DNA from: Melioribacteraceae bacterium
Lineage (GTDB): Bacteria; Bacteroidota; Ignavibacteria; Ignavibacteriales; Melioribacteraceae
Direction of reading: 5' to 3'
DNA length: 32,000 nucleotides
Assembly: GCA_963667875.2 (NCBI GenBank)
Contig: CAXXGC010000009.1
Coordinates: 474,312-506,311 of the forward strand
Position 1 is the first letter of the stretch; each line of letters opens with the position of its first letter. Both the position numbers and the translations under genes were made by a program. Positions 2,610 to 19,900 of this stretch are shown here, piece after piece. Below the pieces are notes generated by a model, which saw only the letters and a list, made by a program, of their open reading frames with translations, was not told the origin of the DNA and ran no database searches.

Positions 2610-3770
2610 TTGAATACAAATCAATTATTGTCAAACCTATGTAATGGGATTATGGAAATTGCATTATTTTTCTCTGGCTCTAAAACACTTTTAGGTGTTA
2701 AATATAATAATGGGAAAATTGAAAATCGAGTTATTGATCCTTTTTTATTATTTAATGATCCATTGACTTTTGTTGATAGATTTATTTTGACGCTAAAAAA
2801 CTGTTTTGATATCCAAAATCCAAAAGAAATAAATCGAATATATTTTGGTATTCAAGGAATTATTAATGAAAAATCAGGGAAAGTAATTAATTGTGAAGCT
2901 CTTGATCAATTAACAATGGCTAAAAGTTATTCCGGATTTTCTTTTAAGGAGAATTTTGGAAAAATTATTGGTGAAGAAAACGTCTTTGTTTTTAATGATA
3001 CTTTGGCTGTTAGTATGGGAGTGGGAGATTTTATGCCAAAAAATAAGTCTACTATTGTATATCTAATTGATAAAGAAACTAGTGTGAGTTATATTAATCA
3101 AATAGGTGGCGTCAAACTAATTGAGCTCGGAAATCTTAAATTGCCAAAAGAATTGGCAGATTCTTCAATTGCTCAACTCGCAGGACCATCTATTCATGAA
3201 ATACTTTTCTCGGGCGACAAAGATGTCTTTGGAACTTATACAACAAATTTTATTGGTTCAGTTCAAGTGTTATTTAGGAGTGTTGACATATTAATAGAAG
3301 TTTTTGCAAAATTAATAGACCCTTGGGTGCCTCTGTTCAATTTATCTAAAAAGCTTTTGGATAAATTTACGTCAGCTTCAAAGAAAACTACGGATAACAG
3401 AGTGTTCGTATGGTCAGTTTATGAAGAATACATCAACAAAAACCAATTGAAAGATTCCGGATTAGGGGAAATTATTTCTTTCCCAAAAGATGAAAATCAA
3501 AAAAATTTAATTCCAATATTGGGGTGTTTCGCGTATCCTAAACAGTTAAAACTTACCAGTCAAACAATTAAAAGAATAGAATACATATCAAATTCTAAAT
3601 CCGTGTATCAATTTACAGAATATTCCGACTTCGAAACTCATTGGAATACAAACCACACTTTCGCAAGTCCGAAAAATGAATACCATATTTTTTATTCTGA
3701 TGATTCAGTAAAAATTCGCAAAATGGCTGATATTAAGGAAAAAAAAGATTTAGAAGAGTTCATTTTTTAG
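2610..3770 (+). CDS. ROK/ASKHA-fold sugar-kinase-like protein with degenerate phosphate-binding motifs and an uncharacterised C-terminal half
   Basis: The layout resembles ROK-family kinases. MEIALFFSGSKTLLGV sits where DIGGT is expected, RIYFGIQGIINEKSGKV resembles igiGvpG.vd..g.v, VFVFNDTLAVSMGV resembles veNDanaaalgE, and IVYLIDKETSVSYI sits where tlGTGiG is expected. The glycine-rich motifs are not conserved. The track start is TTG at 2610; ATG at 2652 (MEIALFF) is an alternative. Confidence 0.45.
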   Translation: MNTNQLLSNLCNGIMEIALFFSGSKTLLGVKYNNGKIENRVIDPFLLFNDPLTFVDRFILTLKNCFDIQNPKEINRIYFGIQGIINEKSGKVINCEALDQLTMAKSYSGFSFKENFGKIIGEENVFVFNDTLAVSMGVGDFMPKNKSTIVYLIDKETSVSYINQIGGVKLIELGNLKLPKELADSSIAQLAGPSIHEILFSGDKDVFGTYTTNFIGSVQVLFRSVDILIEVFAKLIDPWVPLFNLSKKLLDKFTSASKKTTDNRVFVWSVYEEYINKNQLKDSGLGEIISFPKDENQKNLIPILGCFAYPKQLKLTSQTIKRIEYISNSKSVYQFTEYSDFETHWNTNHTFASPKNEYHIFYSDDSVKIRKMADIKEKKDLEEFIF

Positions 3771-3824
3771 TGTTAATCTTCATATTGTAGGTTAAGATTG
3801 ATGAGTGAATGAATAAATCTTTAA

Positions 3825-3853
3825 TAAGTATTTGGGGCGGGTTTTGTTGGGCT
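3825..3853. repeat. copy 1 of intergenic direct repeat TAAGTATTT...GGGGCGGGTTTTGTTGGGCT
   Basis: The identical 20-mer GGGGCGGGTTTTGTTGGGCT occurs at 3834-3853 and 4262-4281. Both copies are preceded by TAAGTATTT, and copy 2 has a few extra bases in between. These are GC-rich islands in a very AT-rich spacer. Confidence 0.8.
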
Positions 3854-4064
3854 TGTCGCTTGTATAAATTAATATCATGTTATTTCCTTATTGCAGTATA
3901 CTTACAAAAGAATACGAATTATAAAAACTAGCCTGAATTTTTACTGCACAAATTATATTAAAAGGGCGTAACACGTTATAATACAATAGATTAGCAATTT
4001 ACAACTTATTTTTACCCTGTTAATGACTCTAAAATTCGTCATAAATATTAATTTTAACCTCCAG

Positions 4065-4258
4065 ATTTTGTTAAAAAAACAATTTGAGCCCCTCAACATT
4101 CATTAAAAAATAATTTCCACTTAAAATTTTTATCAAAAAATCGTTTCTACTTATGATTTTGTTGCTATAAGACGTTTTAACTGTTAAATTTTTGAAAAAA
4201 AGGTTGTTTGACTTCAATGAAATTATAAAAAAGTGTTTTTTAATTGTAAGTATTTTTA
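4065..4258. repeat. degenerate tandem array of about six units, about 30-33 bp period (T-AAAAAA-N-TTT-N-ACTT...)
   Basis: A-tracts recur near 4073, 4105, 4134, 4193 and 4227. The best unit pair is ttaaaaaataatttccacttaaaattttta (4103-4132) against tcaaaaaatcgtttctacttatgattttgt (4133-4162), identical at roughly two thirds of positions by eye. The other units are weaker. Confidence 0.45.
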
Positions 4259-4281
4259 TTGGGGGCGGGTTTTGTTGGGCT
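4247..4281. repeat. copy 2 of intergenic direct repeat TAAGTATTT...GGGGCGGGTTTTGTTGGGCT
   Basis: See copy 1. The 20-mer cores are 428 bp apart and in the same orientation. Confidence 0.8.
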
Positions 4282-4495
4282 GTTGGTTTATCATACTTCT
4301 TCTTATAGATTTATAGCTGAACATAAAATTGACTAATATATTGATCCGGCTGACTCACCTTTCTATTATTTATAAATCAAATCAAATTCCTTATTTGTAT
4401 TCAAATAAAAGATTTATACAATTTTCAAAATTATAAACAGATATTTATTTCCTCAAATCCTCTCTGATTATTAATAGTATTACTAACAGTTATAC

Positions 4496-4524
4496 AAAAA
4501 AAGAGTACCTCAAAGAAGTACTCT
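4496..4524 (-). terminator. rho-independent terminator candidate for the Gly/Ala-rich small gene
   Basis: The minus strand reads AGAGTAC-TTCTTTGAG-GTACTCT followed by TTTTTT. This is a 7-bp stem (4518-4524 / 4502-4508) with a 9-nt loop and a T-run (4496-4501), about 55 nt downstream of the stop at 4580. Confidence 0.55.
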
Positions 4525-4579
4525 ACATTAATACTGGTTAGCAAAAGTAACAGATTCTACCAAGTTTACCTGATATAAT

Positions 4580-4825
4580 TTACTTCCTAGCCAATCTCCA
4601 AATACCGTATGTTGCAGCCGCAACTGCTAATGGAGCAGCAGCTGTAATAGCAATGCCTGCCACCATTCCACCTCCAACAACCGATCCAATAGCTGCAAGT
4701 CCTGTTGTGATTCCAGTTGCGCTTAATCCTGCTGTGCCGGCAGCTGCTACGGTCCCAACTGCACCACCTACAGTTGCTGTTCCTGCTACGCCGGCTGCTA
4801 CTTTTGCTTCAGTTTCTTTTTCCAT
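4580..4825 (-). CDS. small Gly/Ala-rich (glycine-zipper-like) membrane protein, 81 aa
   Basis: ATG start with GGGGAG (complement of 4830-4835) 4 nt upstream and the terminator candidate downstream. The sequence is almost entirely G/A/T/V (GxxxG-type spacing) and ends with the basic tail IWRLARK. It forms a local GC-rich island. The Pro/Ala-rich + strand ORF 4653..4901 is its mirror image. Confidence 0.6.
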   Translation of the reverse strand: MEKETEAKVAAGVAGTATVGGAVGTVAAAGTAGLSATGITTGLAAIGSVVGGGMVAGIAITAAAPLAVAAATYGIWRLARK

Positions 4826-5102
4826 TTTTCTCCCCTTTTATTTATTAATTGCTCTTTTTATTATAAGAGACCCTTCTTTATATCCTATATTTCTTTATTA
4901 AATGTATCTTGAATTTTTTACAGTATTTATGAGCTCGTTGGGTATTAAATAATCACATTCAACATCGGCTCTGATTCCTTCTGACTAATTTGATGGCTTC
5001 ATACTGTTAATATTTTTGCGAACCATCAAATAAAATTTTGAGAAAATCTACTATCAACGATAATCTATTTTATTATTCTTAAATCAAATATAAAATGGTT
5101 CA

Positions 5103-5711
5103 TTATTGTGTTGACATAAAATACCAAATCGAATCATCCATTACACTTCGTGGTATATTAAGAAAATCGGCTGCATATTCAACAATTTTTTTAATATTAA
5201 AATAATTACTTTCATTAATTCCGGCATTTTTGCAATATGTTATTATATGTCTATCAACAGCTATTGTATCAAGACCTAATAATTTTTGAGTGTAATTTAT
5301 TGTTTTGGGTCCGATCCCCTTTATTGCAATAAGTTCCTGATGATTTCTTAAATCTTTAATGAAATTCTTAAAATCAGTACATTTATTAATATTATGATTT
5401 GATAAAAAGACCAACAAATCTTTCATTAAATTTATTTTTCTTTTATTCTTGCATTGTAAAGCATATTCAATCCCATGAATTTCAATAAAAGCGACATAGT
5501 CTTTTAGTGTATTTTTTTTATTAAGTACATTTAATATAAATGATACACGTGGTAAGACTACATTCTCGTAGCTTAATCCTGCTTGTAAGACAATATCGGT
5601 GAGTAAGGCTCCCATATTATTATAATCGTAAGAATTCTTTTTTACAATTCTTAAATTTGTGCTTGAAATATAATTAGCTAATTTTCTTGCATTTTTTGTT
5701 TCTTCAACCAT
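5103..5711 (-). CDS. HhH-GPD superfamily (endonuclease III-like) DNA glycosylase-like protein, 202 aa, no Fe-S cysteine cluster
   Basis: IKGIGPKTINYTQKLLGLDTIAVDRHI aligns by eye with the Nth segment [28 protein letters not shown]. The lysine (K136) and aspartate (D153) positions are conserved. The C-terminus has no Cx6Cx2Cx5C cluster. The start overlaps the stop of the upstream gene by 8 nt. Confidence 0.6.
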   Translation of the reverse strand: MVEETKNARKLANYISSTNLRIVKKNSYDYNNMGALLTDIVLQAGLSYENVVLPRVSFILNVLNKKNTLKDYVAFIEIHGIEYALQCKNKRKINLMKDLLVFLSNHNINKCTDFKNFIKDLRNHQELIAIKGIGPKTINYTQKLLGLDTIAVDRHIITYCKNAGINESNYFNIKKIVEYAADFLNIPRSVMDDSIWYFMSTQ

Positions 5712-6339
5712 TTATAATTTCTTCCGATATTTTTTTTAACGCATCTATTCGATCAACACAATTTGGGCAAGCTCCACAAGGAATTATATCCGAAGCCTGG
5801 CATGAAAAAGTCCTCCCAATAGGAACTGCAAGTTCAATTCCAATTTGGGCCACTTCATATTTGGTCTTGAATCTGAATGGCATTTGTATTATCTGAGATG
5901 AATTTTGCTTAATAAATACATCAATATTGTTAAAATAATCTGCTGTACAATCAATTTCTTTTGCATGATTACTGTTAATAAATGCCGAAAAAACTTCTTT
6001 GATTCCTAAAGTATTAGCATAAGATAAACCAACTGTCAAAAGGAGTAAATTTCGAAACGGTAATATTAAATCATCCGCAGTAGTGTGAGTTTCCCATAAA
6101 TTTCTTTTATAAATAAAACATGAGTCGGATTTCTTATATAAATTATTAATTGTTATTATTTCAAGGTTTTGTACAACAGTGTTAGGCAAAAGTTCTTTTA
6201 ATGTATCAAGTTCAGTTTTGGCACATATTTGTCCATAATCAACAAATAATGGATAAACATCATATTCTTTCTTTTTTAACCAATATGCAAGCGTCGTAGA
6301 ATCCATACCCCCTGACGCTAATAGTACGCATTTCTTCAT
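5704..6339 (-). CDS. QueC-like PP-loop ATPase (7-cyano-7-deazaguanine synthase family), divergent
   Basis: N-terminal PP-loop VLLASGGMDSTT (SGGMDS = complement of 6298-6315). LPFRNLLLL matches the QueC vPgRNl.fl segment. The C-terminal zinc-type motif SCQ...PCGACPNC matches QueC C..CGxCxxC. The middle region (EIDCTADYF) differs from the canonical YPDCR-type segment as I remember it. A 4-nt ATGA overlap joins it to the upstream gene. Confidence 0.7.
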   Translation of the reverse strand: MKKCVLLASGGMDSTTLAYWLKKKEYDVYPLFVDYGQICAKTELDTLKELLPNTVVQNLEIITINNLYKKSDSCFIYKRNLWETHTTADDLILPFRNLLLLTVGLSYANTLGIKEVFSAFINSNHAKEIDCTADYFNNIDVFIKQNSSQIIQMPFRFKTKYEVAQIGIELAVPIGRTFSCQASDIIPCGACPNCVDRIDALKKISEEIING

Positions 6340-7661
6340 ATTTTCTCGCCGATTAATTCAAATATCTTTGTAATTATTTCATCAAAATCCGCAGATACAA
6401 GATCTGGTAAAAACTTTAACATATTATTTTGCGCGATATTATTAGGATCGTATACGATAACCGATTTGTTTAAGGCTTTAGCATAACCAATTTCAATTAG
6501 GGTGCCGGGGTCATTAAAAATTAATATCGCTAATAATAAATTGCAGCTGTTTATCAGATCTAAGTCTTTATTAAAAATTGTTAGTTTGTCTTTTTCGCTG
6601 GATTGATTATTTATCTCGCCATTTTCTTTAATTGGACGGTGGGGATTAAAATTGTGATATTTTAAGGAATTGTAAACAAAATCAATTATTTGTGTGTCAA
6701 CATAAGAGAAATCTGGAGCCGCCAAATAAATATGAATTTCTGAACGTTTTTCCCATGGTAAAGAAATGCCAACATGGGCATTAATAATCTTTTCGTTAAA
6801 GTTTTTAATAGTACTGATTGCTCTACTAAAATTGTCAATATATGTCGTTCTTGAGTATTCCGAGGCAACGATTGAAGCGACGCGATATTTTAATTCTCCC
6901 AAATATTCGCTACAAATAGAAGCTATATCAAAAACATCACCAACTCCTACAGAATGTGTGATTGTATGTGATTGAGAAGGAATTTTTATTTCTTGTTTAG
7001 TAGAAAAATCATAAACTCTACTACCACCCCTATTCTCTTTTAATACCAAATTTTCAGTTAAATTATTGAATAATTGCACAAATTGATTATAATCAACAAA
7101 ACTTTTATTAAAAAAGGTCGACGAGGTTGAAATGAATATTGTATCAAACTTAAAATTGATGGTCTTAAAGACATCGATGTTTTCCACATCGTTTGATAAA
7201 TCAATGTGAATCTTTTTCCCACAATTTGCAATCCTATTAATATTAGGAATTATATGTTGAAAATTCGATTGACCAACTATTAATAATAAATCTGTTATCG
7301 AAGTAAAATTATAAGATTCAAAATTATTTAGATAATTGATCTTGTATTCATCACGTAATATTAAATCATAGTGTTGGCAACCTATTTCTTTAATTTCATC
7401 AATAGTAATAATATTCGGTGCTCCAGTGACATCACCAATCTTTACCATATTTATACAATTATGTTTTTTAAGAAACATTTCAATGCTTCCATCTAAATAG
7501 GCAGGAGCGTTAAATAAAACATCGTAATCAATTCCCAAAGCATATAAAGCACGTATGGCATGCATTATACCCCCCAATCTCATTTTTCTATTTCCGGATT
7601 TTTCCGGTTTTATATTATAATCAATGAGAATATCACCTAATATGCATATTTTTTTATTCAT
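6336..7661 (-). CDS. fusion protein: N-terminal PfkB-family (ribokinase-like) kinase plus C-terminal nucleoside 2-deoxyribosyltransferase-like (NDT/Rcl-like) domain
   Basis: The kinase part has KICILGDILIDY, RLGGIMHAIRALYALG and HSVGVGDVFD (the PfkB GAGD anion-hole motif, complement of 6939-6950). The C-terminal part (about aa 305-441) has IHIYLAAPDF and NDPGTLIEIGYAKALNKSVIVY. The latter matches the NDT family D.GT..E.G.A..G motif, including the catalytic-type Glu. Confidence 0.65.
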   Translation of the reverse strand: MNKKICILGDILIDYNIKPEKSGNRKMRLGGIMHAIRALYALGIDYDVLFNAPAYLDGSIEMFLKKHNCINMVKIGDVTGAPNIITIDEIKEIGCQHYDLILRDEYKINYLNNFESYNFTSITDLLLIVGQSNFQHIIPNINRIANCGKKIHIDLSNDVENIDVFKTINFKFDTIFISTSSTFFNKSFVDYNQFVQLFNNLTENLVLKENRGGSRVYDFSTKQEIKIPSQSHTITHSVGVGDVFDIASICSEYLGELKYRVASIVASEYSRTTYIDNFSRAISTIKNFNEKIINAHVGISLPWEKRSEIHIYLAAPDFSYVDTQIIDFVYNSLKYHNFNPHRPIKENGEINNQSSEKDKLTIFNKDLDLINSCNLLLAILIFNDPGTLIEIGYAKALNKSVIVYDPNNIAQNNMLKFLPDLVSADFDEIITKIFELIGEKI

Positions 7662-8037
7662 GTTGTGGAGTCAATGAAATTTTAATGATAGCAATTGGCT
7701 TATCATTTGAATAATCAACTATTCCTCTATATTCAACACCTTCTGTCATACATCGCATCAAATAATTATATTTAGTTGGTAAATAACCCAAGGTTAAATT
7801 ATCTTTAATATTATATGCTTCTATTCTGGAATTAAAACGTATAGAAACCTCTGTGTTAAATACAGGGACATTGTGATTATTAATATAATAATCGCATTTT
7901 TCGATTTCTTCAAGAGATGTAGAAATTGCCTTAAGACAAATATCATCTGAACTACTACCACCCGCTCCTTCAACCCCTGTCTTAGTGTTATCATATGAAT
8001 GATAATCGCTAAAGTGACCAGTACCAGTACTACCCAT
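7654..8037 (-). CDS. small hypothetical protein (127 aa from ATG 8037), N-terminus MGSTGTG, C-terminal half weakly HIRAN-like
   Basis: The track gives a TTG start at 8049, which would place the GGAGGT motif (complement of 8042-8047) inside the coding region. ATG at 8037 sits 4 nt downstream of that motif and is preferred. The stop overlaps the next gene start by 8 nt (ATGAATAA). LTLGYLPTKYNYLMRCMTEGVEYRGIV resembles the HIRAN pattern iGYlp...a..l..l.d.g....g.v. This similarity was judged by eye only. Confidence 0.6.
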   Translation of the reverse strand: MGSTGTGHFSDYHSYDNTKTGVEGAGGSSSDDICLKAISTSLEEIEKCDYYINNHNVPVFNTEVSIRFNSRIEAYNIKDNLTLGYLPTKYNYLMRCMTEGVEYRGIVDYSNDKPIAIIKISLTPQHE

Positions 8038-8281: not shown

Positions 8282-9466
8282 ATGAATAAAAAGATAAAAA
8301 TTCAATTAAATAAATTCCCTCAAGTGCCAAATAAGCTTAGAGAAAATAGTCCTTCTAATATTGTAAAAGATGAAGTTACTATTAAATTATCAAGATTATA
8401 TTATCACTATTACCTCGATTTTTGGGGAATAATACAATCGCATTTTACTTATAAGAATTCGGATATTTTTGAGTATTTAGTCAAATCTCCTGATTTTAGA
8501 TTCCATTTAAATGGTACGACGATTAATTCTGATCATAAGCGGATAGTTTCATATTTACTTGGACAAGCTTTTTGTAGGTATTTTTTGTACGAATTTTGTG
8601 GTATTACATATTTTGCACATATGGATAAGATAATAGATAAAACAACTCATCCTGCTTTTAATGGATTAAGAATTCAGAGAGCACTAACAGGGGATATCCC
8701 TGATTATCTATGTGCAAGGAAGGTAGATGAACCTTATATTGCAGAAGCTAAAGGTCGGTTTAATAATATAAATTTTAATTCACTTGAATTTGCAAAGTGG
8801 AGAAAACAATTTGAAAATATTATTATCTTGGATAAATCAGGGAAAAATTGTAAAATAAAGGGATTTATAGTGGCTACAAAGTTCGTAACTGATCAAAATA
8901 TAAATTCAAATAGATCAACAATTATGGCAGAAGATCCTGAAACAGGTGGGGATAATATTGGTACACGCGTAAATGGTAGTATAGGAAGGGGCTGTATTGC
9001 GATTCATTATTCTAATGTAGCCGAAAAGTTGGGTTTGCCATTAATTTCACAAGTTCTTGGAGGGAACATTATCATTAGTGAAAATTTAATTATTAAATTA
9101 CCATTATATAAATGCTTACACCCCAAATTAGAAGGTCAATCCTTTATTTCAGGTCGCAGATTCTTTGGTGAACTCAGGTGGTCAGAATTCTTCGTAAGAG
9201 AAAATTATATAATGAAAAAACTTGAGAATTCGTTAGGTGTTAACCATCCGCTATTCTTCGGATTACATCTCGATACTTTTAAGTTTCTAATAAAAGCATG
9301 TACTGTTAATTGGAATTTTCTTTCGGAAATTACTCCGTTGGAAGATGTTGAAGACGAAGAGGAGAATTTAATGTTGCTGAGAGATGGGACTGTTTCTGGA
9401 AATTTAAACTTATTTGAATTTGTAGAGCAACGAGAATTTAGACTAGGAGAATTCGAAACAATCTAA
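8282..9466 (+). CDS. hypothetical protein with PD-(D/E)xK nuclease-like motif, 394 aa
   Basis: ATG start. GDIPDYLCARKVDEPYIAEAKGRF gives a PD...(13 aa)...E-A-K arrangement typical of restriction-endonuclease-fold active sites. It is divergently transcribed from the QueC-like operon across a 230-bp AT-rich spacer. Confidence 0.45.
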   Translation: MNKKIKIQLNKFPQVPNKLRENSPSNIVKDEVTIKLSRLYYHYYLDFWGIIQSHFTYKNSDIFEYLVKSPDFRFHLNGTTINSDHKRIVSYLLGQAFCRYFLYEFCGITYFAHMDKIIDKTTHPAFNGLRIQRALTGDIPDYLCARKVDEPYIAEAKGRFNNINFNSLEFAKWRKQFENIIILDKSGKNCKIKGFIVATKFVTDQNINSNRSTIMAEDPETGGDNIGTRVNGSIGRGCIAIHYSNVAEKLGLPLISQVLGGNIIISENLIIKLPLYKCLHPKLEGQSFISGRRFFGELRWSEFFVRENYIMKKLENSLGVNHPLFFGLHLDTFKFLIKACTVNWNFLSEITPLEDVEDEEENLMLLRDGTVSGNLNLFEFVEQREFRLGEFETI

Positions 9467-9557: not shown

Positions 9558-10133
9558 CTAAGTATTTGATAAAATAGGCCAACCATAAATAAATCGCCAT
9601 GCTGCCTCAATTGCAATTCTTGTGTTTTTGTTTTCGAGATATCTCTTTATTTGTTGCTTTTGGCTAGGATTTAAACTTTCCAAATTTGGTAAACTTGCAA
9701 TTGAAAAATAAGAGGCTTGCCACTCTTGGTTTGATAAATTATAATACTTAATTCCTAAAGCTCCTGTGGAATTACTATTAACAAAAAAATGTGCACGGAG
9801 CCTGGAAAGGATTTTGTCAGCTTCTCCGTTATAAATTACATTTAACTTTGCAAATCTATGACAAATATTACTAGTAAATAATGAGTTGCCATTAGCCCTT
9901 TGGCTCCAAACGATTGCATTGTCAGGGAGATCACTGGGGGTTGCTAATTTTCTTAACTTATCTATGGAGTAATCAACTTGAAACCAATAAAGTCCTTGAC
10001 TGTTATAATAGTCCAATGATTTATTTGTAAACCACTTTCTTAAGAAAGTTTCAGTTTCCCATGCACTCGTGCCTCCAAAGTCCACAATTTCTCTATTCTC
10101 CCAACAAGCGGATGCAATCTGTGATAAAGTCAT
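9558..10133 (-). CDS. GIY-YIG nuclease-like protein, 191 aa
   Basis: GGAG lies 5 nt upstream of the ATG. VIYNGEADKILSRLRAHF (complement of 9786-9833) matches the Y-x-G-x-A-x5-R-x3-H-F spacing of I-TevI YVGSAKDFEKRWKRHF. The C-terminal IAIEAAWRFIYGWPILSN matches the GIY-YIG E...P..N helix. The first (GIY) strand is ambiguous. Confidence 0.4.
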   Translation of the reverse strand: MTLSQIASACWENREIVDFGGTSAWETETFLRKWFTNKSLDYYNSQGLYWFQVDYSIDKLRKLATPSDLPDNAIVWSQRANGNSLFTSNICHRFAKLNVIYNGEADKILSRLRAHFFVNSNSTGALGIKYYNLSNQEWQASYFSIASLPNLESLNPSQKQQIKRYLENKNTRIAIEAAWRFIYGWPILSNT

Positions 10134-10255: not shown

Positions 10256-11617
10256 TTAAAAAGGTGCAATACCCGATAATTCGTGAAATAGTTTAATTGC
10301 GTAAGTGTCGGTCATTCCACTTATAAAATCAGTAATCAATAATAATTTTTTATATTTCTCGTTACCATATTTCTCAAATTTATTATTAATAAATTCATAA
10401 TTTTTTGATACTAATGCATTGAATTTACCCGGTATTGTTCGAGTATCGTCTTTTGATTCTGAAAATAATGAATCAGTAAAATATTTTAGATGAAATTTTA
10501 ATGCAGCTTGTCCGGCTAATTCACGTTTCAACACCGTTGGATGATTGAAATTATTTTTTGCTAATTTCTTGAACAGTTTGCGTATGTTAGCTGCATCTGA
10601 TGCCAATACTAAATCTTCATCAAATTCACCATTAATTATTCGTTCATAATTGTTTATAAAACAATCAACCGCTGCAACAATTAATGACGATTGAGAGCGT
10701 ATTCTATAATACTGAATTAATAGAATGAAATCAGCAGGATGATCTTTTGGTATTTTGTTTTTGTATTCATCTAAAACCTTATGTTCATTCTCTTTCTCTG
10801 AGCCTAACAAATTTTTATCAATATTATCTCTAAGCGTTTTTTCAGTTATAATCCCTTTTTTACAACCATCTTCAATATCTGAAACTGAATAAGCAATGTC
10901 ATCAGCTGCTTCGAGCAAAAATACTAATGGATGTCTTTTATTCCCTAAACCTAAACTATCTGAAATTATTTGAAAATCATCTTTTTCGGCTTGGAAATAA
11001 CCAAACTTTTTTTCACTTGATTTTGTACTCGCTTGCTTATTACCACTTATTGAAGAATGTGGGTATTTTATGATTGATGACAAAGTTGGAAATGTTAAGT
11101 TATAGCTATACTCATCAATAGCGGGTCCTAATTTTCGGAGTATTCGCAAAGTTTGGGGATTGCCCTCAAATTTTAAAAAATCATTTTTTTCTTCTTCATT
11201 CAAATCATCTAATATTTCGCTATGCGTAAAGAAATCTTGAATGCATGTTTCACCGAAATGACCAAAAGGTGGGTTCCCAATATCGTGTAATAATCCAGCA
11301 GTTGATAATAAAGAAGGAATATATCCTAAGGACTTCTCTGGAAGTTCCTTAAGCTCATATAATCTTTTTTCTACAGCCAACCCAAGACTTCTTGCAAAAC
11401 ATGATACTTCGATAGAATGTGTTAATCTAGTTCTCACAAAATCACTATCATCATAGGGGAATACTTGGGCTTTATCCTGTAACCTTCGGAAATGTGGAGA
11501 TAAAATAATTCTGGAATAATCATTATCAAAATGATTTCTAGCATCATTGTCTATAATACTGCTACGTGTATTTCTAAATCTTTTGTTTTGTAAAAGTTTT
11601 TCCCAATCTGCTTTCAT
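10256..11617 (-). CDS. dgt: dGTP triphosphohydrolase-family HD-domain protein (dGTPase-like)
   Basis: FRRLQDKAQVF, RLTHSIEVSCFARSLG and LLHDIGNPPFGHFGE are the classic Dgt/HD motifs, and DDIAYSVSDIEDG is the conserved DD motif. I prefer ATG at 11617 (MKADWEKLL), which leaves a 25-nt gap to the upstream gene. The track start at 11680 would overlap that gene by 38 nt. Confidence 0.85.
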   Translation of the reverse strand: MKADWEKLLQNKRFRNTRSSIIDNDARNHFDNDYSRIILSPHFRRLQDKAQVFPYDDSDFVRTRLTHSIEVSCFARSLGLAVEKRLYELKELPEKSLGYIPSLLSTAGLLHDIGNPPFGHFGETCIQDFFTHSEILDDLNEEEKNDFLKFEGNPQTLRILRKLGPAIDEYSYNLTFPTLSSIIKYPHSSISGNKQASTKSSEKKFGYFQAEKDDFQIISDSLGLGNKRHPLVFLLEAADDIAYSVSDIEDGCKKGIITEKTLRDNIDKNLLGSEKENEHKVLDEYKNKIPKDHPADFILLIQYYRIRSQSSLIVAAVDCFINNYERIINGEFDEDLVLASDAANIRKLFKKLAKNNFNHPTVLKRELAGQAALKFHLKYFTDSLFSESKDDTRTIPGKFNALVSKNYEFINNKFEKYGNEKYKKLLLITDFISGMTDTYAIKLFHELSGIAPF

Positions 11618-11642
11618 ATTATTTCCAATTTTATTTATGCAA

Positions 11643-11876
11643 TTACTCCTTATCCTTTGGTGGGCATGGATCATTCCCATAGCTATTCTTTTCGGAAATT
11701 TGTCCGTTTTTATTGTGGATGATTAATTCGGATTCTTGGTTTTTAGCTATTTCTTTAGCTTTTTCGACGGCTTCTTCTTTTGTCTTGGTTACTTTTGTGG
11801 CTTTTGAATTGTGTTCACCCTTAACCTGCCAACCATTTGGGTGTTTGGTTACATGCTGATTTTTACCCTTTGACAT
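11643..11876 (-). CDS. DUF2188-like small protein, 77 aa
   Basis: HVTKHPNGWQVKGEHNSKATKVTKTKEEAVEKAKEIAKNQESELIIHNKNGQISEKNSYGNDP follows the DUF2188 pattern (hv.p...gW.vk.e...ra...f.tkeeAi..a.eiAk......l.iH..dG.i......g.Dp). It sits directly upstream of, and probably co-transcribed with, the dGTPase gene. Confidence 0.65.
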   Translation of the reverse strand: MSKGKNQHVTKHPNGWQVKGEHNSKATKVTKTKEEAVEKAKEIAKNQESELIIHNKNGQISEKNSYGNDPCPPKDKE

Positions 11877-12228: not shown

Positions 12229-12960
12229 ATGGTTAAAAAGTTAAAATCTACAGTACATACTGCCCGAACTATAATGTTTGAAGAATTGTCCAGAGTTATT
12301 AATAGTACTATTGATGATAATAAGTATATTGATTCCCTTAATGATAATATTGCCGGCAAACAAACAAAAACAAATCAAAAAAGAACTAACTCGGCTCTTT
12401 TAAGTTTATATAAGCTTGATATAAACTATACTCCCTTTTTATGTTTTAAGTATTTTTGGCAAATGGCTGATGAAAAAGAGCTGCCGATAATTACTTTGTT
12501 ATACGCAATTTGCAATGATTATTTACTTAATGAAAGTACCGATGTAATACTTTCAACACCAATTGGTGAAAAAGTTGAAAAACTAAAGTTAGAAGAGAAC
12601 ATCGAATTATTTAATCCCAACAAATATACCCCAAAAACCAAAGGGTCTTCCACAAGGAATTTAATTAGTTCGTGGAAACAAGCCGGGTATATTTCCAACG
12701 ATAAATTATGTACACGTAAGGAACAAAATCACACGTACCGGACTGTGGCGTTTGCCTTTTTAATGGCATATTTAAGTGGTGAAAGAGGAGATTTTATATT
12801 ATCAAGTAAATGGGTAAAAACACTTGCGTTAAACGATTCACGAATACGTGAATTTGCCTCGGAAGCGTCAAAACGTGATTTGCTTAAATATCAGTATGCG
12901 GGTAATGTATCTGTAATTTCTTTTGACAATCTTTTCAAAAGGTTAAATATAAATGTCTAA
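12229..12960 (+). CDS. brxA: BREX protein BrxA (DUF1819-type), called mainly by position
   Basis: First gene of a canonical brxA-brxB-brxC-pglX-pglZ-brxL array, with an 8-nt overlap onto brxB. I did not verify specific DUF1819 residues. Confidence 0.65.
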   Translation: MVKKLKSTVHTARTIMFEELSRVINSTIDDNKYIDSLNDNIAGKQTKTNQKRTNSALLSLYKLDINYTPFLCFKYFWQMADEKELPIITLLYAICNDYLLNESTDVILSTPIGEKVEKLKLEENIELFNPNKYTPKTKGSSTRNLISSWKQAGYISNDKLCTRKEQNHTYRTVAFAFLMAYLSGERGDFILSSKWVKTLALNDSRIREFASEASKRDLLKYQYAGNVSVISFDNLFKRLNINV

Positions 12961-13498
12961 CTTAGTGGATCGTCTTTTAACAGCGGTTGATATTGTGCTT
13001 CGAGAACCTTGGGCTACTTCGTTATCCGGGAAAGAACGAATGTGGTTTCTTGTTTACGATCCCGCCGAACAAAGGAAAATAAATTTACGCTTGGGAGATT
13101 TTGAATCCGTAGCAGTTAAAGCAGGTAAAAAGTGGATTGAGATCTCTTTTAAGAATGTTTTCCCAACTTGGATGGCAAACCATGAGTACAGGGATGAGTA
13201 TTTTATGGATCCCGATGGGTTAGTGGATCAACTTGAAGCGGATTTTAAAAATTATGCAATTAACCATTGCATTAAAGAACTTAATAAACTTGGGACAGAT
13301 AATAATACCTTAATTGCACTTAAAGATGTATCCTCTTTGTTTGGATTTGTAAGGTTATCTTCAGTTTTAGACGGAGTAGCCAATTCATTTAATGGCAGGG
13401 TGCTTGTTTTTTTTCCGGGTGAATTTGAAAAAAATAATTATAGATTGTTAGATGCCAGAGATGGCTGGAGTTATTTGGCACGACCAATTATTGCATAG
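12953..13498 (+). CDS. brxB: BREX protein BrxB (DUF1788-type)
   Basis: Size (181 aa), position between brxA and brxC, and the N-terminal segment ERMWFLVYDPAEQRKINLRL typical of DUF1788 proteins as I recall them. Confidence 0.7.
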   Translation: MSNLVDRLLTAVDIVLREPWATSLSGKERMWFLVYDPAEQRKINLRLGDFESVAVKAGKKWIEISFKNVFPTWMANHEYRDEYFMDPDGLVDQLEADFKNYAINHCIKELNKLGTDNNTLIALKDVSSLFGFVRLSSVLDGVANSFNGRVLVFFPGEFEKNNYRLLDARDGWSYLARPIIA

Positions 13499-13510
13499 GA
13501 GATTTTGGTT

Positions 13511-16500
13511 ATGAAAAACAATGAACTTTTTACTCTTAATCCTTCTGAAAATAATCTGATAAACGATGGTGTAGTAGAAATTAACACCGCAAAAGATGAC
13601 AAAGGGTTACAGATATTACATCACGAAATTAAGACATTTGTTTGTGAAGGCGAATATCAGAACGGCATTTATAGAATTTTGGATACTTACCTAAAACATC
13701 TTAATCAACCCAAACAACCGGCGGCTTGGGTAAGCGGATTTTTTGGAAGCGGTAAATCTCATCTGGTAAAAATACTTGGTTATTTATGGGAAGATTTTGT
13801 TTTCCCTAACGGAGATACCGCAAGAACATTAAAACCTTTACCTGCGGATATAAAAGATTTATTAGTAGAGTTAGATAGAAAGCAAAAGATATATGGTAAA
13901 CTTGCTGTTTCGGGTACACTTAAAGACTTTCCATCCGCGGATATTAGATATTCGTTTTTACAGTTATTCCTTAACGCCCTTGATCTTCCGCCTCAGTATC
14001 ATCATTTTAAGTTTGTTTATTGGGCAAAACAAGAAGGTATTTATGACGATCTTAAAACTATTATTGAAACTCAGGGTAAAGATTTTAGAAAAGAATATGA
14101 AAATCTATTTGTCTCTTCAACACTTGCAAAAGCCGTTTTACAATTAAAACCTGAATTTGCCGAAAATGAAGCAAAAGTAAAAGAAAATTTTAAGGCAAAT
14201 TTCAAAAGGGTTGATAATATTAACCGACAAGAATTAATTGATACTATAAAAAATGAAGTATTGCCATTAACTTTTGGCGATAAAGTGCCATGTACAATAA
14301 TTGTGTTGGATGAAGTACAACAATTTATTGGAACCGATGGAAATAAAACAATAGATATCCAAAATCTTGCCCAAGATATATGCAGTAATTTTGACAGTAA
14401 ATTTTTGCTTGTTGGTACAGGTCAAAACGCTCTTTCCGAAACACCGTTTTTACAACCTTTGCAGGATCGTTTTACAATAAAAGTTTCGTTATCGGATACT
14501 GATGTTGAAACTGTTACAAGAAAAACCGTATTAGAAAAAAAACCGTCGGTAGTTGCTACAATTAATAACAAACTGGAATCCGTATTGGGCGAAATATCGC
14601 GCAATTTGTCGGGTACCGAATTTGGTTATGTTACAAGTGAAAGAAATACTCTAGTTGCCGATTATCCTATTTTACCGGCTACGCGAAAATTTTGGAAAAA
14701 AATTCTTCAATCAATTGATACAGCCGGTACTTCGGGCCAGCTTAGAAGCCAGCTTAGGATAGTTGATGAGAGCATTAAACATGTAGCTGAAAAAGAACTT
14801 GGGGTTGTTGTTCCAGCGGATTTTATATTTGAACAAAAGCAGCAACAGCTTTTACAAAACGCATTATTATTAAATGAAACAAACAATATTATACAGGAAC
14901 GTAAAGTTAAAGGTGGCGATTCGCTTTTAGAGGGACGTATTTTAAGTGTTGTGTTTTTAATTGATCAACTGCCAAATGATTTACCAGGCGGTATTCTCAA
15001 ATCGGATGGAGTTACTATTGAAAACTTACTTATTGAAAACTTAAATGAATCATCCGATATCATAAGAAATAAAGTAAAAGAACTTATTAAAAAAATGGTT
15101 GAGGAAAAAGTTCTTATGCTTGTTAATGATGAATATAAATTACAAACAAAAGTTGGGGCTGAATGGGAACAAGAATATACAGCTCATGCTGTTAATATTA
15201 ATAGTACCGGTGATGATAAAATTCAACAAATTAGAAAAGATAAAATCAGCCGATTTTTTAAGGATAAAACCAAAACAATTAATATTCTGCATGGCAATTC
15301 AAAACAAAGAAGAGAATTTGAAATTTGGGACAAAACAGAAAAACCCAATTTGGAAAATAAACTTAATATTTGGATACGCGACGGTTGGTTTGAAAATGAA
15401 CTTGTAGTGTTAAACGAAATTAGAGCTGAAGGAGCCGATAAACCTTTAGCATATACTTTTGTTAGAAAATTACGCGATATGGATTTGCGTTTGGAAATTA
15501 TTAAATATATAGCTGCCGATTTAACAATTCAATCCAAAGGGCTTCCTTCAACACCGGAAGGTGAACAAGCAAAAAAAAGTATGGAAACGCGCAAAGAAAT
15601 GGCTAATAAAACGATTGAAGATATAGTTGAAAAAATATGTAATGATTCCATTGTATATTTAGCCGGAGGGAATAAAGTTGAAGTGGGTGACACAAAAGCC
15701 AACATTGACGAAGCACTTAATAATATTGCGGATAGACAGTTCCCCGAATTTAGAAGTAAAGCGGATTACAAAGATTGGGATAGGGCTTTATTAAAAGCTA
15801 TTGCAGGCGAACCTGATGCGTTAAAGAAAATTTTATGGGATAAAGAACCAAAAGACCACCCTATGGCAATAGAAATTCTCCGTTTAATAGGTAATAATAA
15901 TATTACGGGAAAAGAAATACGAAATTATTTTACAAAGTCGCCTTATGGATGGAGTCAGGATGCTATTGATACAATTATAATAATGCTTAAAAATACAGAA
16001 CACATATCAGCATCGGAGCCTTTAATTAATCAGTCAAAAATAGCTAACTCGGTTTTCAAAAAAGAAATCCATACTATTTCGGCATCCGAAAGAATAAGAA
16101 TTAGAAAGTTATATCAAGAAACCGGTATTATGTGTAAACCGGGCGAAGAGTTTTTACATTCAAACACATTGTTTAATAAATTAAAAGAATTAGCATCAGG
16201 AATTAGCGGAGATGCTCCAAAACCCGAACCGATTAATATCCAATTTATTAAAGAAATTGAAAATTTAGATGGTAATGAAAGGTTGCTGCGGATTGTTGAA
16301 GAGCAAGAAGACTTAAAAAATAAATATCTTGAATGGAAAAATAAACTTGAATTAATTAAAAAACGAGAACCTCAATGGATTTTATTAAGTGAATTAGCAA
16401 AATATGCTTCATCTCTACAAGATGTTGATTCTCTGCTTGCGGAAATAGAGGCGATAAATGAAAACCGTTTGATTTTAATGGAACCCGATCCTATTCAGCC

Positions 16501-16942
16501 CAAATTGTTAGCTATTGTTGATAAATTAAAAGCAAGATTAAATGAATTAAAGGAAGAATATATAACCCTATATGATTTGAAAATGAATAATTTGCAAGCA
16601 AATGAATATTTTGTAAAACTTCCTCAAACACAAAAACATTTTATCCTTGCCAAACATCAATTATTAAAAAAACCGGAAATAAAAGCATTAGACGCAAATA
16701 CGCTTAAAAACGAATTATTACAAGTATCTTTGACGGGTTGGGAAACAAAAATTGCTGCGTTGTTAAGCCAATTTGAATCAGCTACGGAAGATTCAATAAA
16801 GTTATCGGTACCCGAAGCCGAAACATTTTTATTGCCTAGAAGGACTATTAATACAGCCGGAGATATTGAAATATACATACACGAAATTAAGACAAAATTA
16901 GATAAATTAATAAAAAATGGGAAATCGATTATCCTTAAATAG
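13511..16942 (+). CDS. brxC: BREX P-loop ATPase BrxC/PglY
   Basis: About 1140 aa. Walker A is GFFGSGKSH (13736-13762) and Walker B-like is CTIIVLDEVQQF, followed by a long helical C-terminal region. I prefer ATG 13511 with AGGAG (13497-13501) 9 nt upstream; the track uses TTG 13505. Confidence 0.85.
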   Translation: MKNNELFTLNPSENNLINDGVVEINTAKDDKGLQILHHEIKTFVCEGEYQNGIYRILDTYLKHLNQPKQPAAWVSGFFGSGKSHLVKILGYLWEDFVFPNGDTARTLKPLPADIKDLLVELDRKQKIYGKLAVSGTLKDFPSADIRYSFLQLFLNALDLPPQYHHFKFVYWAKQEGIYDDLKTIIETQGKDFRKEYENLFVSSTLAKAVLQLKPEFAENEAKVKENFKANFKRVDNINRQELIDTIKNEVLPLTFGDKVPCTIIVLDEVQQFIGTDGNKTIDIQNLAQDICSNFDSKFLLVGTGQNALSETPFLQPLQDRFTIKVSLSDTDVETVTRKTVLEKKPSVVATINNKLESVLGEISRNLSGTEFGYVTSERNTLVADYPILPATRKFWKKILQSIDTAGTSGQLRSQLRIVDESIKHVAEKELGVVVPADFIFEQKQQQLLQNALLLNETNNIIQERKVKGGDSLLEGRILSVVFLIDQLPNDLPGGILKSDGVTIENLLIENLNESSDIIRNKVKELIKKMVEEKVLMLVNDEYKLQTKVGAEWEQEYTAHAVNINSTGDDKIQQIRKDKISRFFKDKTKTINILHGNSKQRREFEIWDKTEKPNLENKLNIWIRDGWFENELVVLNEIRAEGADKPLAYTFVRKLRDMDLRLEIIKYIAADLTIQSKGLPSTPEGEQAKKSMETRKEMANKTIEDIVEKICNDSIVYLAGGNKVEVGDTKANIDEALNNIADRQFPEFRSKADYKDWDRALLKAIAGEPDALKKILWDKEPKDHPMAIEILRLIGNNNITGKEIRNYFTKSPYGWSQDAIDTIIIMLKNTEHISASEPLINQSKIANSVFKKEIHTISASERIRIRKLYQETGIMCKPGEEFLHSNTLFNKLKELASGISGDAPKPEPINIQFIKEIENLDGNERLLRIVEEQEDLKNKYLEWKNKLELIKKREPQWILLSELAKYASSLQDVDSLLAEIEAINENRLILMEPDPIQPKLLAIVDKLKARLNELKEEYITLYDLKMNNLQANEYFVKLPQTQKHFILAKHQLLKKPEIKALDANTLKNELLQVSLTGWETKIAALLSQFESATEDSIKLSVPEAETFLLPRRTINTAGDIEIYIHEIKTKLDKLIKNGKSIILK

Positions 16943-16973
16943 TTTAGTTGGTTAAAACAAAGAGAAAAAGGTT

Positions 16974-19900
16974 ATGGCAGTACTTACCACACAACAGCGT
17001 AATAAGTTAGAATCAATTGTTATAAATGCAAGAGTGATGGCCGAAAACGGTGCTCGCAATGCTCTTGTTAGTTTTGGGGTTAATGCGGAGTCTCCTTTTG
17101 TTCATATGTCCACCGAACAAAAAACATTGCGCAACCGACTTAGGTATAAAGCCAGATTGTTGGGTGATGAACTTTTGGCTAGCGGGCAACAGCAAATAAA
17201 CCGATTGGCTTATGAGTTAGCTTATGAATATTGGCATAAAATGCTTTTTACAAAGTTTTTAGAGGCTAACGGATTATTAATACATCCCGATGGTGTGCCT
17301 GTTACAATGGCGGAATGTGAAGAACTGGCAAATGAAGTAGGAGTTGGTGATAAATGGGATGTGGCGGCAAATTACGCCTCTAAAATGTTACCCGCTATTT
17401 TTAGAGTAAACGACCCATTAATGAAAATAGAATATGCCGCGGAAGACAGGATTAAACTTGAAAGTTTGTTAGATGGTTTGGACACGGAAATATTTGTGGC
17501 CGATGATGCTCTCGGGTGGGTGTATCAGTTTTGGCAAAGTGAGGCAAAAGCAAAAATTAACGCAAGCGGCGATAAAATTAATGGAGAAAAATTACCCGCC
17601 GTTACACAACTTTTTACCGAACCTTACATGGTGCATTTTTTAATTGATAATACTTTAGGAGCGTGGTGGGTAAGTAGAAATCCGGGAGTTACTCCTCCTG
17701 TTAATTTTGAGTATTTACGAACATTTGATGATGGGAAACCGGCGGCAGGAAGTTTTGAAGGTTGGCCGGATAAAACAGCAGAAATAACTTCTCTTGATCC
17801 TTGTATGGGTTCGGGACATTTTCTTGTATCCCTATTTACCGTTTTTGTTAACCTAAGGATGTTTGAGGAAGGACTAAACAAAGAGGAAGCCACCGATAAA
17901 GTAATTTTAGAAAACTTACACGGTCTTGAAATAGACCCCCGGTGTACACAAATTGCGGCGTTTAACCTTGCTTTAACGGCGTGGAAATTTTGTGGTTTTT
18001 ATAAAATTTTGCCCGAAATGAATTTAGCGTGTAGCGGAATTGCGCCAAAAGGGAAAAAAGAAGATTGGGTAAAGTTAGCCGGTGGAATAAAAGACTCGGT
18101 TCAAAAATCAAGAGCTGAAAACGGCATGAAAGTACTTTATGATCATTTTCAATTAGCTCCCGAACTTGGAAGTCTTTTAGACCCTTCAACAATTAAAGCC
18201 GATGTTTTTACCGCTAGTTTTGAAGAGCTTCAACCTTTATTAAATAAAGCTTTGTTAAGTGAAATTGGCGATGAACAAACAGAAATTGGGGTTGTTGCGG
18301 CCGGAATTGCTAAAGCGGGTCAGTTGTTGGCTAAAAAATATACTTTACAAATTACTAATGTGCCATATCTTTCGAGGGGTAAGCAAGATAAAATAATTGC
18401 TGATTATTGCGATAAATATTTTAATGAAGCTAAAGGTGACTTATCAACCGTCTTTTTTTCTAAAATGATAAAATTCAATACGTTTGGGGGTCTTTCTTGT
18501 TGTGTGATTCCGCAAAATTGGCTTTTTCTTACTTCAAATAAAAAATTACGAGAAAAATTATTAAAGGGTGAGTCATGGTGTTTTGTTGCAAAATTGGGGA
18601 CAAAAGCATTCCAAACACCTATGTGGGATTTTAATGTCATGCTTATAGCGATAGCTCATAAAACACCCACAATTGATCAAGTTTTTATTGGTGTTGATGT
18701 TTCGGAGGCAAATAACACGCAAATAAAAAATAGTTCTATTAAAACAGTTGCATTTACACCATTTATTCAGAAAAAGCAATTGAGCAATCCAGAATACAAA
18801 GTTATTTTGGCTGAATTTGACAAGTTGCAATTTTTGAATATTTATGCTTTTTCATATCAAGGAATAAAAACCGGTGACGATTCGAGGTTTAGATTTTCTT
18901 TATGGGAAATAACGAATTACAATATTTGGAAGCCTTTACAGAGTACAGTTAAGAAAACAACGTTATTCGGTGGATTAAGTGATGTGATACCATGGTATGA
19001 CAATGGACATTATTTGAGTAGAAGGCAGGGTGTGGCTGGTTGGGGTAAGCATGGTGTATCCGTAAGTCAAATGGGATCCCTTCCCTGTTCGATTCATCTC
19101 GGTTATTTATTTGACTCCAATATCTCAGCACTTATACCTAAGAAGGATATTTATAATTTCCCGATTTGGGCTTACTGCTCCTCCGAAAATTATTGCAAGG
19201 ATGTAAGAATCATTGATCAAGCCCTTGCAGCTTCTAATACAGCTATGGCTCAAGTAAATTTCGACATTGAATATTGGCAAAAAATTGCATCTGAAAAATA
19301 CCCAAACGGTTTACCCAAACCATATAGTGACGACCCAACACAATGGTTATTCCATGGAAATCCAATAAAAGCGGATAACCCTTTACAGGTAGCTGTAGCA
19401 CGTTTGTTGGGGTATAAATGGCCTGCGGAAAGTGATGAAAATATGGAGTTGGCCGATGAAGCTAAAGCTTTAATAAAAACAATAAAACAATTTGATAAAT
19501 TAGCTGATGAAGACGGCATTGTATGCTTACCATCTGTAAACGGTGAATTTTCGGCAGCTGACAGACTGAGAAACTATTTGCAAACCGTTTTGGGAGATGA
19601 TTGGAATAACCAATTATTAGAACAATTTTTGGCAAAAGAAAATACAAAAAAAACTAACCTTGAAGATTGGTTAAAAGAAGAATTTTTTGAACAACATTGT
19701 AAACTATTTAATAACCGCCCTTTTATTTGGCACATTTGGGACGGAAGAAAAGACGGATTTAGTGTTTTAGTTAATTACCATAAACTAACAAAAGAAAATT
19801 TACAAAAGCTTGTATTTACATATTTAGGTGATTGGATAAGGCAATGTGAAGCAAAAAAGAAATTAGGCGAAAGTGGTGCCGAAGGATTATTAAGCGCGGC

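Follow-up and report, generated by a model that had tools for sequence, protein, structure and literature searches.

The window analysed here is a stretch of 32,000 nucleotides from contig CAXXGC010000009.1 of a Melioribacteraceae bacterium (GenBank assembly GCA_963667875.2). It contains a gene for a single polypeptide in which a PfkB/ribokinase-like domain is joined to a nucleoside 2-deoxyribosyltransferase (NDT)-type domain. It was found that this PfkB-NDT fusion gene belongs to a cassette of four genes encoding, in this order, a small HIRAN-fold protein, the fusion, a QueC-like enzyme, and an Ogg2-like glycosylase. The cassette is rare, mobile, strictly linked, and associated with defence islands. 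By analogy, it appears to be a further QueC-based immunity module, the third next to the type IV cyclic oligonucleotide-based antiphage signalling system (CBASS) and QatABCD. I propose tentatively, and with somewhat less than even confidence, that the fusion carries out the nucleoside chemistry of a mobile cassette whose core is a QueC-family ligase, and that it may act on a base attached to a protein. I infer this from the gene linkage, a Rosetta-stone fusion, the conserved catalytic residues, and the analogy with Cap9 and QatC. The genes of the cassette and the two domains of the fusion are as follows; an earlier note on the same DNA, which had proposed the two-domain architecture from the sequence alone, gave no strand for the fusion.

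7654..8037, minus strand: cassette gene 1, small protein of 127 amino acids (aa), with its ATG at 8037, the N-terminal tail MGSTGTGHFSDY, and a HIRAN-fold domain at residues 35-127.
6336..7661, minus strand: cassette gene 2, the PfkB-NDT fusion (P0001), 441 aa, whole open reading frame (ORF).
6777..7661, minus strand: PfkB/ribokinase-like domain of the fusion, residues 1 to about 295.
6336..6749, minus strand: NDT-type domain of the fusion (residues about 305-441) with the stop codon.
5704..6339, minus strand: cassette gene 3, QueC-like PP-loop ATPase of 211 aa, with SGGMDS and four zinc-binding Cys residues.
5103..5711, minus strand: cassette gene 4, Ogg2-like glycosylase of the helix-hairpin-helix (HhH)-GPD type, 202 aa, with the segment GIGPK(136)T...D(153)RH.

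As the coordinates indicate, the cassette genes overlap at their junctions in the window; the fusion gene overlaps the stop of the upstream gene by 8 nucleotides and the start of the downstream gene by 4 nucleotides. The gene order is kept in all of the 51 related loci examined (44 genome loci, six IMG/VR contigs, and one distant sister-lineage locus), where the fusion is always second and the flanks vary. By tblastn, the small-protein gene was detected in 43 of the 44 genome loci, and so was the glycosylase gene. In the sister lineage (L053:1921-4778), where the fusion is only 30% identical, these four genes recur in unchanged order, and the neighbours are genes for a TerB_N protein, an Mrr-HRDC nuclease, and a NUDIX protein. 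It was also revealed that a metagenomic protein of 655 aa (P0182) is a natural triple fusion of PfkB-like, NDT, and QueC domains, the last at residues 449-647. Two loci are apparently decaying: L043:535-3673 has an internal stop codon in the small gene and a QueC-like gene split by about 1.2 kb, and in L058:6001-7292 the fusion matches as two pieces with a short gap between them. The genes at 8282-9466 and 9558-10133 and a nearby dGTPase gene were considered as further members of the cassette and rejected, since they are missing from the 96%-identical locus of a congener (L001) and from all other loci, three loci with a dGTPase gene excepted. A promoter scan gave matches no commoner than in shuffled sequence, non-sigma-70 promoter types lying outside the scan.

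The fusion is conserved in full length in more than 1000 protein clusters at 90% identity; with 1.84 billion representatives searched and a limit of E<=1e-30, it also turned up in 159 clusters at 50% identity. The identity is 42-49% within Bacteroidota and 32-36% in other phyla, the taxa being Bacteroidota, Verrucomicrobiota, Bdellovibrionota, Desulfobacterota, Alpha- and Gammaproteobacteria, Acidobacteriota, and Cloacimonadota. In 65 fusion sequences, drawn from seven or more phyla, 41 positions never vary, and all the catalytic residues named below are among them. Only one of 40 relatives of the host, a congener, has the fusion, and none of 400 evenly sampled Pseudomonadota has it. No full-length homologue was found in 50,697 genomes or records of cultured phages, and the idea of a phage DNA-modification pathway was rejected for this reason. 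The six IMG/VR contigs that carry the whole cassette are predicted to be viral or proviral. This distribution is the pattern of a mobile accessory gene and not of salvage metabolism. The occurrence is rare and patchy and not that of a common housekeeping enzyme, an outcome that the earlier note had named as one that would speak against its reading.

The two-domain architecture, a PfkB fold followed by an NDT-type domain, is confirmed. The AlphaFold2 model of the fusion, built on 26 homologues, has a mean per-residue confidence (pLDDT) of 91 and a predicted template modelling score (pTM) of 0.90, and the two domains are predicted to pack confidently against each other. Two motifs are found in the polypeptide: GVGD at residues 239-242, and DPGTLIEIGYAKALNKSVIVY at residues 384-404. 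The C-terminal half passes the Pfam threshold for Nuc_deoxyrib_tr (PF05014; E 3.1e-16, 60 bits against a cut-off of 28.8, residues 311-408). In solved NDTs, the Glu of the DEGVMVELG motif is presumably the catalytic nucleophile, and E390, in the motif D384-P-G-T-x-x-E390, aligns with it. Y312 and D366 fall on the matching active-site residues of solved NDTs and D384 is likewise aligned; all four residues are invariant in the 65 sequences. At the first position of this motif, NDTs have an Asp that contacts the 3'-OH, while DNPH1 has a phosphate-binding Ser. In sequence searches of the PDB, with either the single sequence or a 26-sequence profile, the best solved relatives of this half were transferases. 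A DNPH1 chain was not among the matches even at E<10, and the weak matches included 4jen, a CMP (cytidine monophosphate) N-glycosidase.

The likeness to class II NDTs (PF05014; solved structures 8rh3, 6evs, and 2a0k) therefore lies in the Pfam threshold and in the aligned, invariant Tyr, Asp, Asp, and Glu of the active site. The fusion differs from them in that its NDT domain sits behind a kinase-like domain of 295 residues, has the extra invariant segments YHNFxPRRPIKENG and NCML, which are not aligned to the solved NDTs shown, and is of low identity to solved NDTs (E 0.03 with a single sequence and 9e-5 with a profile). This half may transfer a deoxyribosyl group between bases. The earlier note had assigned it to the NDT type with a nucleophilic Glu, and this assignment stands; no unrelated Rossmann fold emerged.

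The PfkB assignment of the N-terminal half was harder to reach. There was no Pfam match to PF00294 at E<10 and no PfkB match in NCBIfam, the fusion was not reported in a PF00294 search of the host genome, and kinases were absent from the PDB sequence matches with the single sequence and with the 26-sequence profile. An hhalign comparison of the 26-sequence profile with Escherichia coli RbsK alone gave a weak local match. The assignment was settled by the fold search and a broader profile-profile alignment. By Foldseek, the fusion model matches ketohexokinase, ribokinase, and other PfkB kinases at E of about 1e-14 and a template modelling score of about 0.7 (normalised to the target). By hhalign, a 63-member family profile aligns to E. 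coli RbsK and four PfkB kinases of the host with a probability of 98.3% (E 8.7e-14). A distant family member (P0261) passes the Pfam PfkB threshold with 26.3 bits against 25.8, and one UniRef record names a homologue of the fusion as a PfkB-domain protein.

In the hhalign alignment, D14 of the fusion corresponds to the Asp that binds the sugar in ribokinase, G30-G31 to its GG dipeptide, and G239-x-G-D242 to its anion hole and catalytic Asp. G30-G31 aligns to G41-G42 of RbsK, and D242 to the Asp of the AAGD segment, presumably D255 in the numbering of RbsK itself; G30-G31 and G239-V-G-D242 are invariant in the 65 sequences. Thus, the GVGD region, which the earlier note had counted among PfkB motifs, lies on the PfkB anion hole, and the N-terminal half is a PfkB-type domain. 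In common with the PfkB/ribokinase family (ribokinase, ketohexokinase, and archaeal nucleoside kinase), the fusion has the same fold including the lid sheet, and the Asp for substrate binding, the GG pair, and the GxGD anion hole, catalytic Asp included, are all retained. In contrast, the fusion lies below the Pfam threshold, is 10-15% identical to solved members, and has the family-specific invariant motifs KENRGGSR and, in the lid, KE.G.QGY. Since the catalytic residues are invariant across the 65 sequences, both halves look like working enzymes, with the metal site of the kinase as a caveat. A coupling of glycosyl transfer to phosphorylation, which the earlier note had suggested as channelling, is plausible.

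The first gene of the cassette encodes a putative acceptor protein. A GGAGG sequence lies 5 nucleotides before its ATG codon, and in 42 of the 44 genome loci the N-terminus follows the pattern MGS[ST]G[ST]Gx[FL][ST]DY, starting exactly at Met-Gly. The tail is followed by a disordered Gly/Ser linker; in the AlphaFold2 model, residues 12-28 have a pLDDT below 50, and the rest is above 90. No Pfam match was found for this protein or for the glycosylase. As judged from the model, the body of the small protein is a HIRAN beta-barrel fold. VIA-align gave a Z score of 11.6 to 3k2y (root mean square deviation of 2.0 A over 88 residues) and of 9.1-9.6 to the HIRAN domains of HLTF and Rad5, the other Z scores being 7 or lower. 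The Foldseek match to HIRAN has a probability of 1.00, and the nearest Pfam-named cluster in the ESM Atlas is HIRAN (0.84).

The QueC-like enzyme encoded by the third gene matches QueC in Pfam (E 6.6e-35) and in PADLOC (E 3.1e-24), but scores 98.8 bits with TIGR00364, where 150.3 would be needed for an equivalog. Among solved structures, Cap9 (9nto_B, E 4.6e-11) is its closest relative, and Bacillus subtilis QueC (8.9e-8) ranks behind. The glycosylase encoded by the fourth gene matches OGG in PADLOC (E 2.8e-4) and N-glycosylase/DNA lyase in NCBIfam (E 5.7e-6). Among solved structures it is closest to 3fhg and 3fhf, Ogg enzymes of the archaeal type, and K136, D153, R154, and H155 are at least 95% conserved.

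How might these proteins work together? In type IV CBASS, the N-terminal glycine of CdnD is the site to which Cap9 attaches 7-carboxy-7-deazaguanine. According to the authors, N9 of the base stays free after conjugation, open to 'subsequent addition of ribose', and they proposed an OGG-like enzyme, Cap11, as the reversing enzyme (bioRxiv 10.1101/2025.04.06.647259). In CdnD and QatB, the N-termini, with the tails MGGS and MGTS respectively, are acceptors or essential (PMC13279940). Since the MGS[ST]G tail with its disordered linker resembles these tails, the small HIRAN-fold protein may have an acceptor role. The QueC-like enzyme would then spend ATP to couple a carboxylated nucleobase, either 7-carboxy-7-deazaguanine or one akin to it, to the exposed glycine at the N-terminus of this protein. 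The NDT domain would use Glu390 to move a 2-deoxyribosyl group from a donor nucleoside to the free ring nitrogen, as a functional stand-in for Cap10, which resembles tRNA-guanine transglycosylase (TGT). The PfkB-like domain may phosphorylate a hydroxyl group of the new sugar, so that a protein-linked nucleotide would result. The Ogg2-like glycosylase might cut the glycosidic bond again, or excise the adduct from DNA, and in this way reset the system, while the HIRAN domain could bring DNA 3' ends into play. The base is most likely tethered to the glycine tail of the HIRAN protein during the chemistry of the fusion, if the analogy is followed. The natural fusion to a QueC domain in P0182 suggests that the fusion and the QueC-like enzyme carry out consecutive chemistry.

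A further step is more speculative, and I regard it as unlikely in its full form. The nucleotide built on the protein N-terminus from base, deoxyribose, and phosphate might engage or cap the DNA 3' ends held by the HIRAN domain, with the Ogg2-like enzyme reversing this. If true, this would be a new protein-nucleic-acid conjugation in immunity, and would answer the question of the fate of the free N9 in type IV CBASS.

Several observations weigh against the proposal of a protein-tethered base. First, the small protein at L053, the one sister-lineage locus examined, starts with MFEDVY and has no N-terminal glycine; thus, the glycine tail is not universal in the wider family. Second, the substrate motif of the QueC-like enzyme is E-I-D-C (with an invariant Glu128, D130 being kept) versus the canonical Y-P-D-C, so that an invariant Glu takes the place of the Tyr that stacks on the base in QueC and Cap9. 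The sister-lineage enzyme retains Y-Y-D-C. The motif of QatC is likewise altered, its substrate being uncertain (PMC13279940). Third, the host genome (100% complete) has no QueE by three models and no canonical QueC. A cassette-bearing congener also lacks QueE, and no QueE match was found in a further seven of 43 cassette hosts, genomes for which completeness was not reported. The host has one TGT gene (a single match of 540 bits, on another contig), presumably for a housekeeping tRNA enzyme, and two PTPS/QueD-like genes. The genus seems to rely on salvage of queuosine precursors, and a supply of 7-carboxy-7-deazaguanine in the host is not evident. Because of these absences and the E-I-D-C motif, the base handled by the QueC-like enzyme may not be 7-carboxy-7-deazaguanine.

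Further points concern the fusion and the cassette as a whole. The NXXE metal/phosphate motif, another difference from the PfkB/ribokinase family, was not found in the kinase half: the PNETE segment of RbsK falls in a gap of the hhalign alignment, and a conserved S178-T-S-S181 lies at or beside the position. Kinase activity is therefore not assured, and the interpretation of the fusion in the earlier note is upheld for the architecture but left in part uncertain for the kinase half. PADLOC v2 has no model for the fusion or the small protein, and the cassette has no obvious effector.

The neighbourhood in the window is that of a defence island. The following features were identified beside the cassette.

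12229-25524, plus strand: complete type I BREX (bacteriophage exclusion) system with BrxA, BrxB, BrxC, PglX, PglZ, and BrxL.
10256-11680, minus strand: dGTPase, 2.2 kb from the cassette.

The BREX system has an extra gene of 323 aa between PglX and PglZ (20193-21164), for which a weak AAA-ATPase match was the only one found (PtuA, E 6.8e-4). Directly after BrxL lies an ORF of 680 aa (25560-27602, plus strand) with no Pfam or PADLOC match, and a member of the 8xMP octameric membrane protein family is encoded at 28904-29698 (plus strand, E 1.2e-35). In other genomes, the 137 ORFs flanking the cassette include seven OLD/AAA_21 ATPases, four ResIII helicases, and three dGTPases. HipA, KAP NTPase, type I restriction-modification, and SMODS-associated NUDIX genes also occur there, mixed with housekeeping genes. 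The three dGTPase genes lie within two genes of the cassette among the 44 other loci (L010:8675-10258, L016:8602-10059, and L018:4096-5334), and those of L010 and L016 are directly downstream on the same strand. Deoxyguanosine, the product of dGTPase, would naturally suit an NDT as deoxyribosyl donor. Plain clustering in defence islands may explain the adjacency just as well.

In six Bacteroidota loci (L003, L005, L006, L011, L012, and L030; around 3760-5640), a conserved pair of genes precedes the cassette on the same strand. One encodes an AAA_21/AAA_15 ATPase of 430-450 aa (41-71% identity between loci), and the other a protein of 155-172 aa that starts with MCI[IV]IDTN and looks PIN-like. 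The divergence of the pair is similar to that of the cassette. The pair recalls QatA and QatD, and may be an effector module that some cassettes have and others lack.

What else could the fusion do? The cassette may make a free non-canonical deoxynucleotide: the QueC-like enzyme would tailor a base, the NDT domain load it with deoxyribose, and the PfkB-like domain make the monophosphate. The product could be an antiviral nucleotide analogue or a precursor for DNA modification, and the glycosylase and the HIRAN protein would act on DNA containing it. With its catalytic residues intact, an NDT-kinase fusion is most simply read as a path from base through nucleoside to nucleotide, and the HhH-GPD glycosylase and the HIRAN fold are both DNA-directed. 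The dGTPase genes near the cassette in the window and in the three other loci, which would release deoxyguanosine as the sugar donor, and the absence of the glycine tail from the sister-lineage small protein also speak for it. However, the near-invariant MGS[ST]G tail with its disordered linker would be unexplained, and so would the closer relation of the QueC-like enzyme to the protein-modifying Cap9 than to biosynthetic QueC. In addition, the cassette has no DNA transglycosylase or polymerase, and no full-length homologue of the fusion exists in the phage genomes surveyed, where genes for deazaguanine DNA modification are common. A free product is a serious possibility, albeit on the unlikely side.

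The fusion may instead be the effector of the cassette. Once the cassette senses infection, an N-glycosidase resembling DNPH1/Rcl and a nucleoside kinase could run a futile cycle, in which deoxynucleosides or deoxynucleotides and ATP are destroyed. NDT-fold enzymes do include N-glycosidases for deoxynucleoside monophosphates and CMP, and 4jen is among the weak matches. Nucleotide depletion is an established strategy of defence, a dGTPase gene lies nearby, and an effector is otherwise not obvious in the cassette. The motif around E390 argues against this, as it has the Asp typical of NDTs and not the Ser of DNPH1, and so do the PDB searches, in which transferases were the best solved relatives and no DNPH1 chain appeared. 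The joining to a QueC-like domain in P0182 also suggests consecutive chemistry rather than a separate effector. Thus, an effector role is considered improbable. Finally, an ordinary purine-salvage enzyme, as suggested elsewhere (PMC13329287), is nearly excluded by the distribution and seems very improbable: NDT and nucleoside kinase are classical salvage activities, but the fusion is present in so few relatives, invariably shares its cassette with genes for the HIRAN protein, the QueC-like ligase, and the glycosylase, has variable flanks rich in defence genes, and occurs on predicted viral or proviral contigs.

The proposal of a protein-tethered base is of interest for the following reason. 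In type IV CBASS, QueC-family enzymes link a nucleobase to the N-terminus of proteins, and in QatABCD they are essential, which raises the question of the later fate of the conjugate. The two halves of the fusion are exactly the activities expected for a path from base to nucleoside to nucleotide, and they are found beside a ligase, a possible reversing glycosylase, and a partner with a fold that binds DNA 3' ends. Thus, the question becomes directly testable in a compact system of four genes. Even if the tethered-base model is wrong, the PfkB-NDT family is moved from 'purine salvage' to a rare, mobile module of defence islands, and the HIRAN-fold protein and the Ogg2-like glycosylase are added as members that domain databases miss.

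The PfkB-NDT architecture itself has been recorded. PF00294-PF05014 proteins adjoin 89% of the QueC 'Cluster 4' genes and were called likely purine-salvage enzymes, the cluster being filed under 'other metabolic pathways' (Biochem J 2026, PMC13329287). The likeness of Cluster 4 to the cassette extends to SGGxDS, to a YGQ...E motif, and to a variant cluster of Cys residues. The Cys motif of Cluster 4, CH(x)5CxxCxGCxK, is not identical with that of either cassette lineage and is nearer to that of L053 (CH(x)6CxxCxxC) than to that of the present lineage (CQ(x)6CxxCxxC). On the other hand, the HIRAN-fold protein, the glycosylase, and the defence-island setting are not in that account of Cluster 4 (PMC13329287). 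The literature search found no paper on the four-gene cassette, on its HIRAN and glycosylase members, or on its defence setting. Thus, the statement of the earlier note that the architecture had not been described in a defence system holds for the literature searched, while the architecture as such was already on record. What appears to be new is the obligatory place of the fusion in a HIRAN/QueC-like/Ogg2-like cassette within defence islands.

Type IV CBASS differs from the cassette in several respects. The cassette has no CD-NTase (cGAS/DncV-like nucleotidyltransferase) or CBASS effector, immediate neighbours included, and no TGT-like Cap10 (PADLOC and Pfam); the PfkB-NDT fusion is found where the base-handling Cap10 would be. 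The candidate acceptor is a small HIRAN-fold protein and not a signalling enzyme. The E-I-D-C motif contrasts with the Y115/D117 pair of Cap9, which matches the Y-P-D-C of B. subtilis QueC. In spite of these differences, both systems lie in defence islands and have a QueC-family ligase, an OGG-like HhH glycosylase as the last gene or an accessory, and a partner protein with an N-terminal tail of the Met-Gly-(Gly/Ser)-Ser type.

QatABCD is distinguished from the cassette by the QatA ATPase and the TatD nuclease QatD, neither of which is present in the cassette, and PADLOC gave no Qat match. QatB is helical without a known fold versus the HIRAN fold of the cassette partner, and the QueC-like enzyme of 211 aa lacks the extensions of the QatC type. 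QatC has an altered base-recognition pair (PMC13279940), so that in both systems the nucleobase-recognition motif is altered and the substrate is uncertain. Both systems consist of four genes including one for a QueC-family enzyme, and in both of them an N-terminal glycine motif (MGTS in QatB and MGS[ST]G in the cassette) is carried on a long disordered tail of the partner protein.

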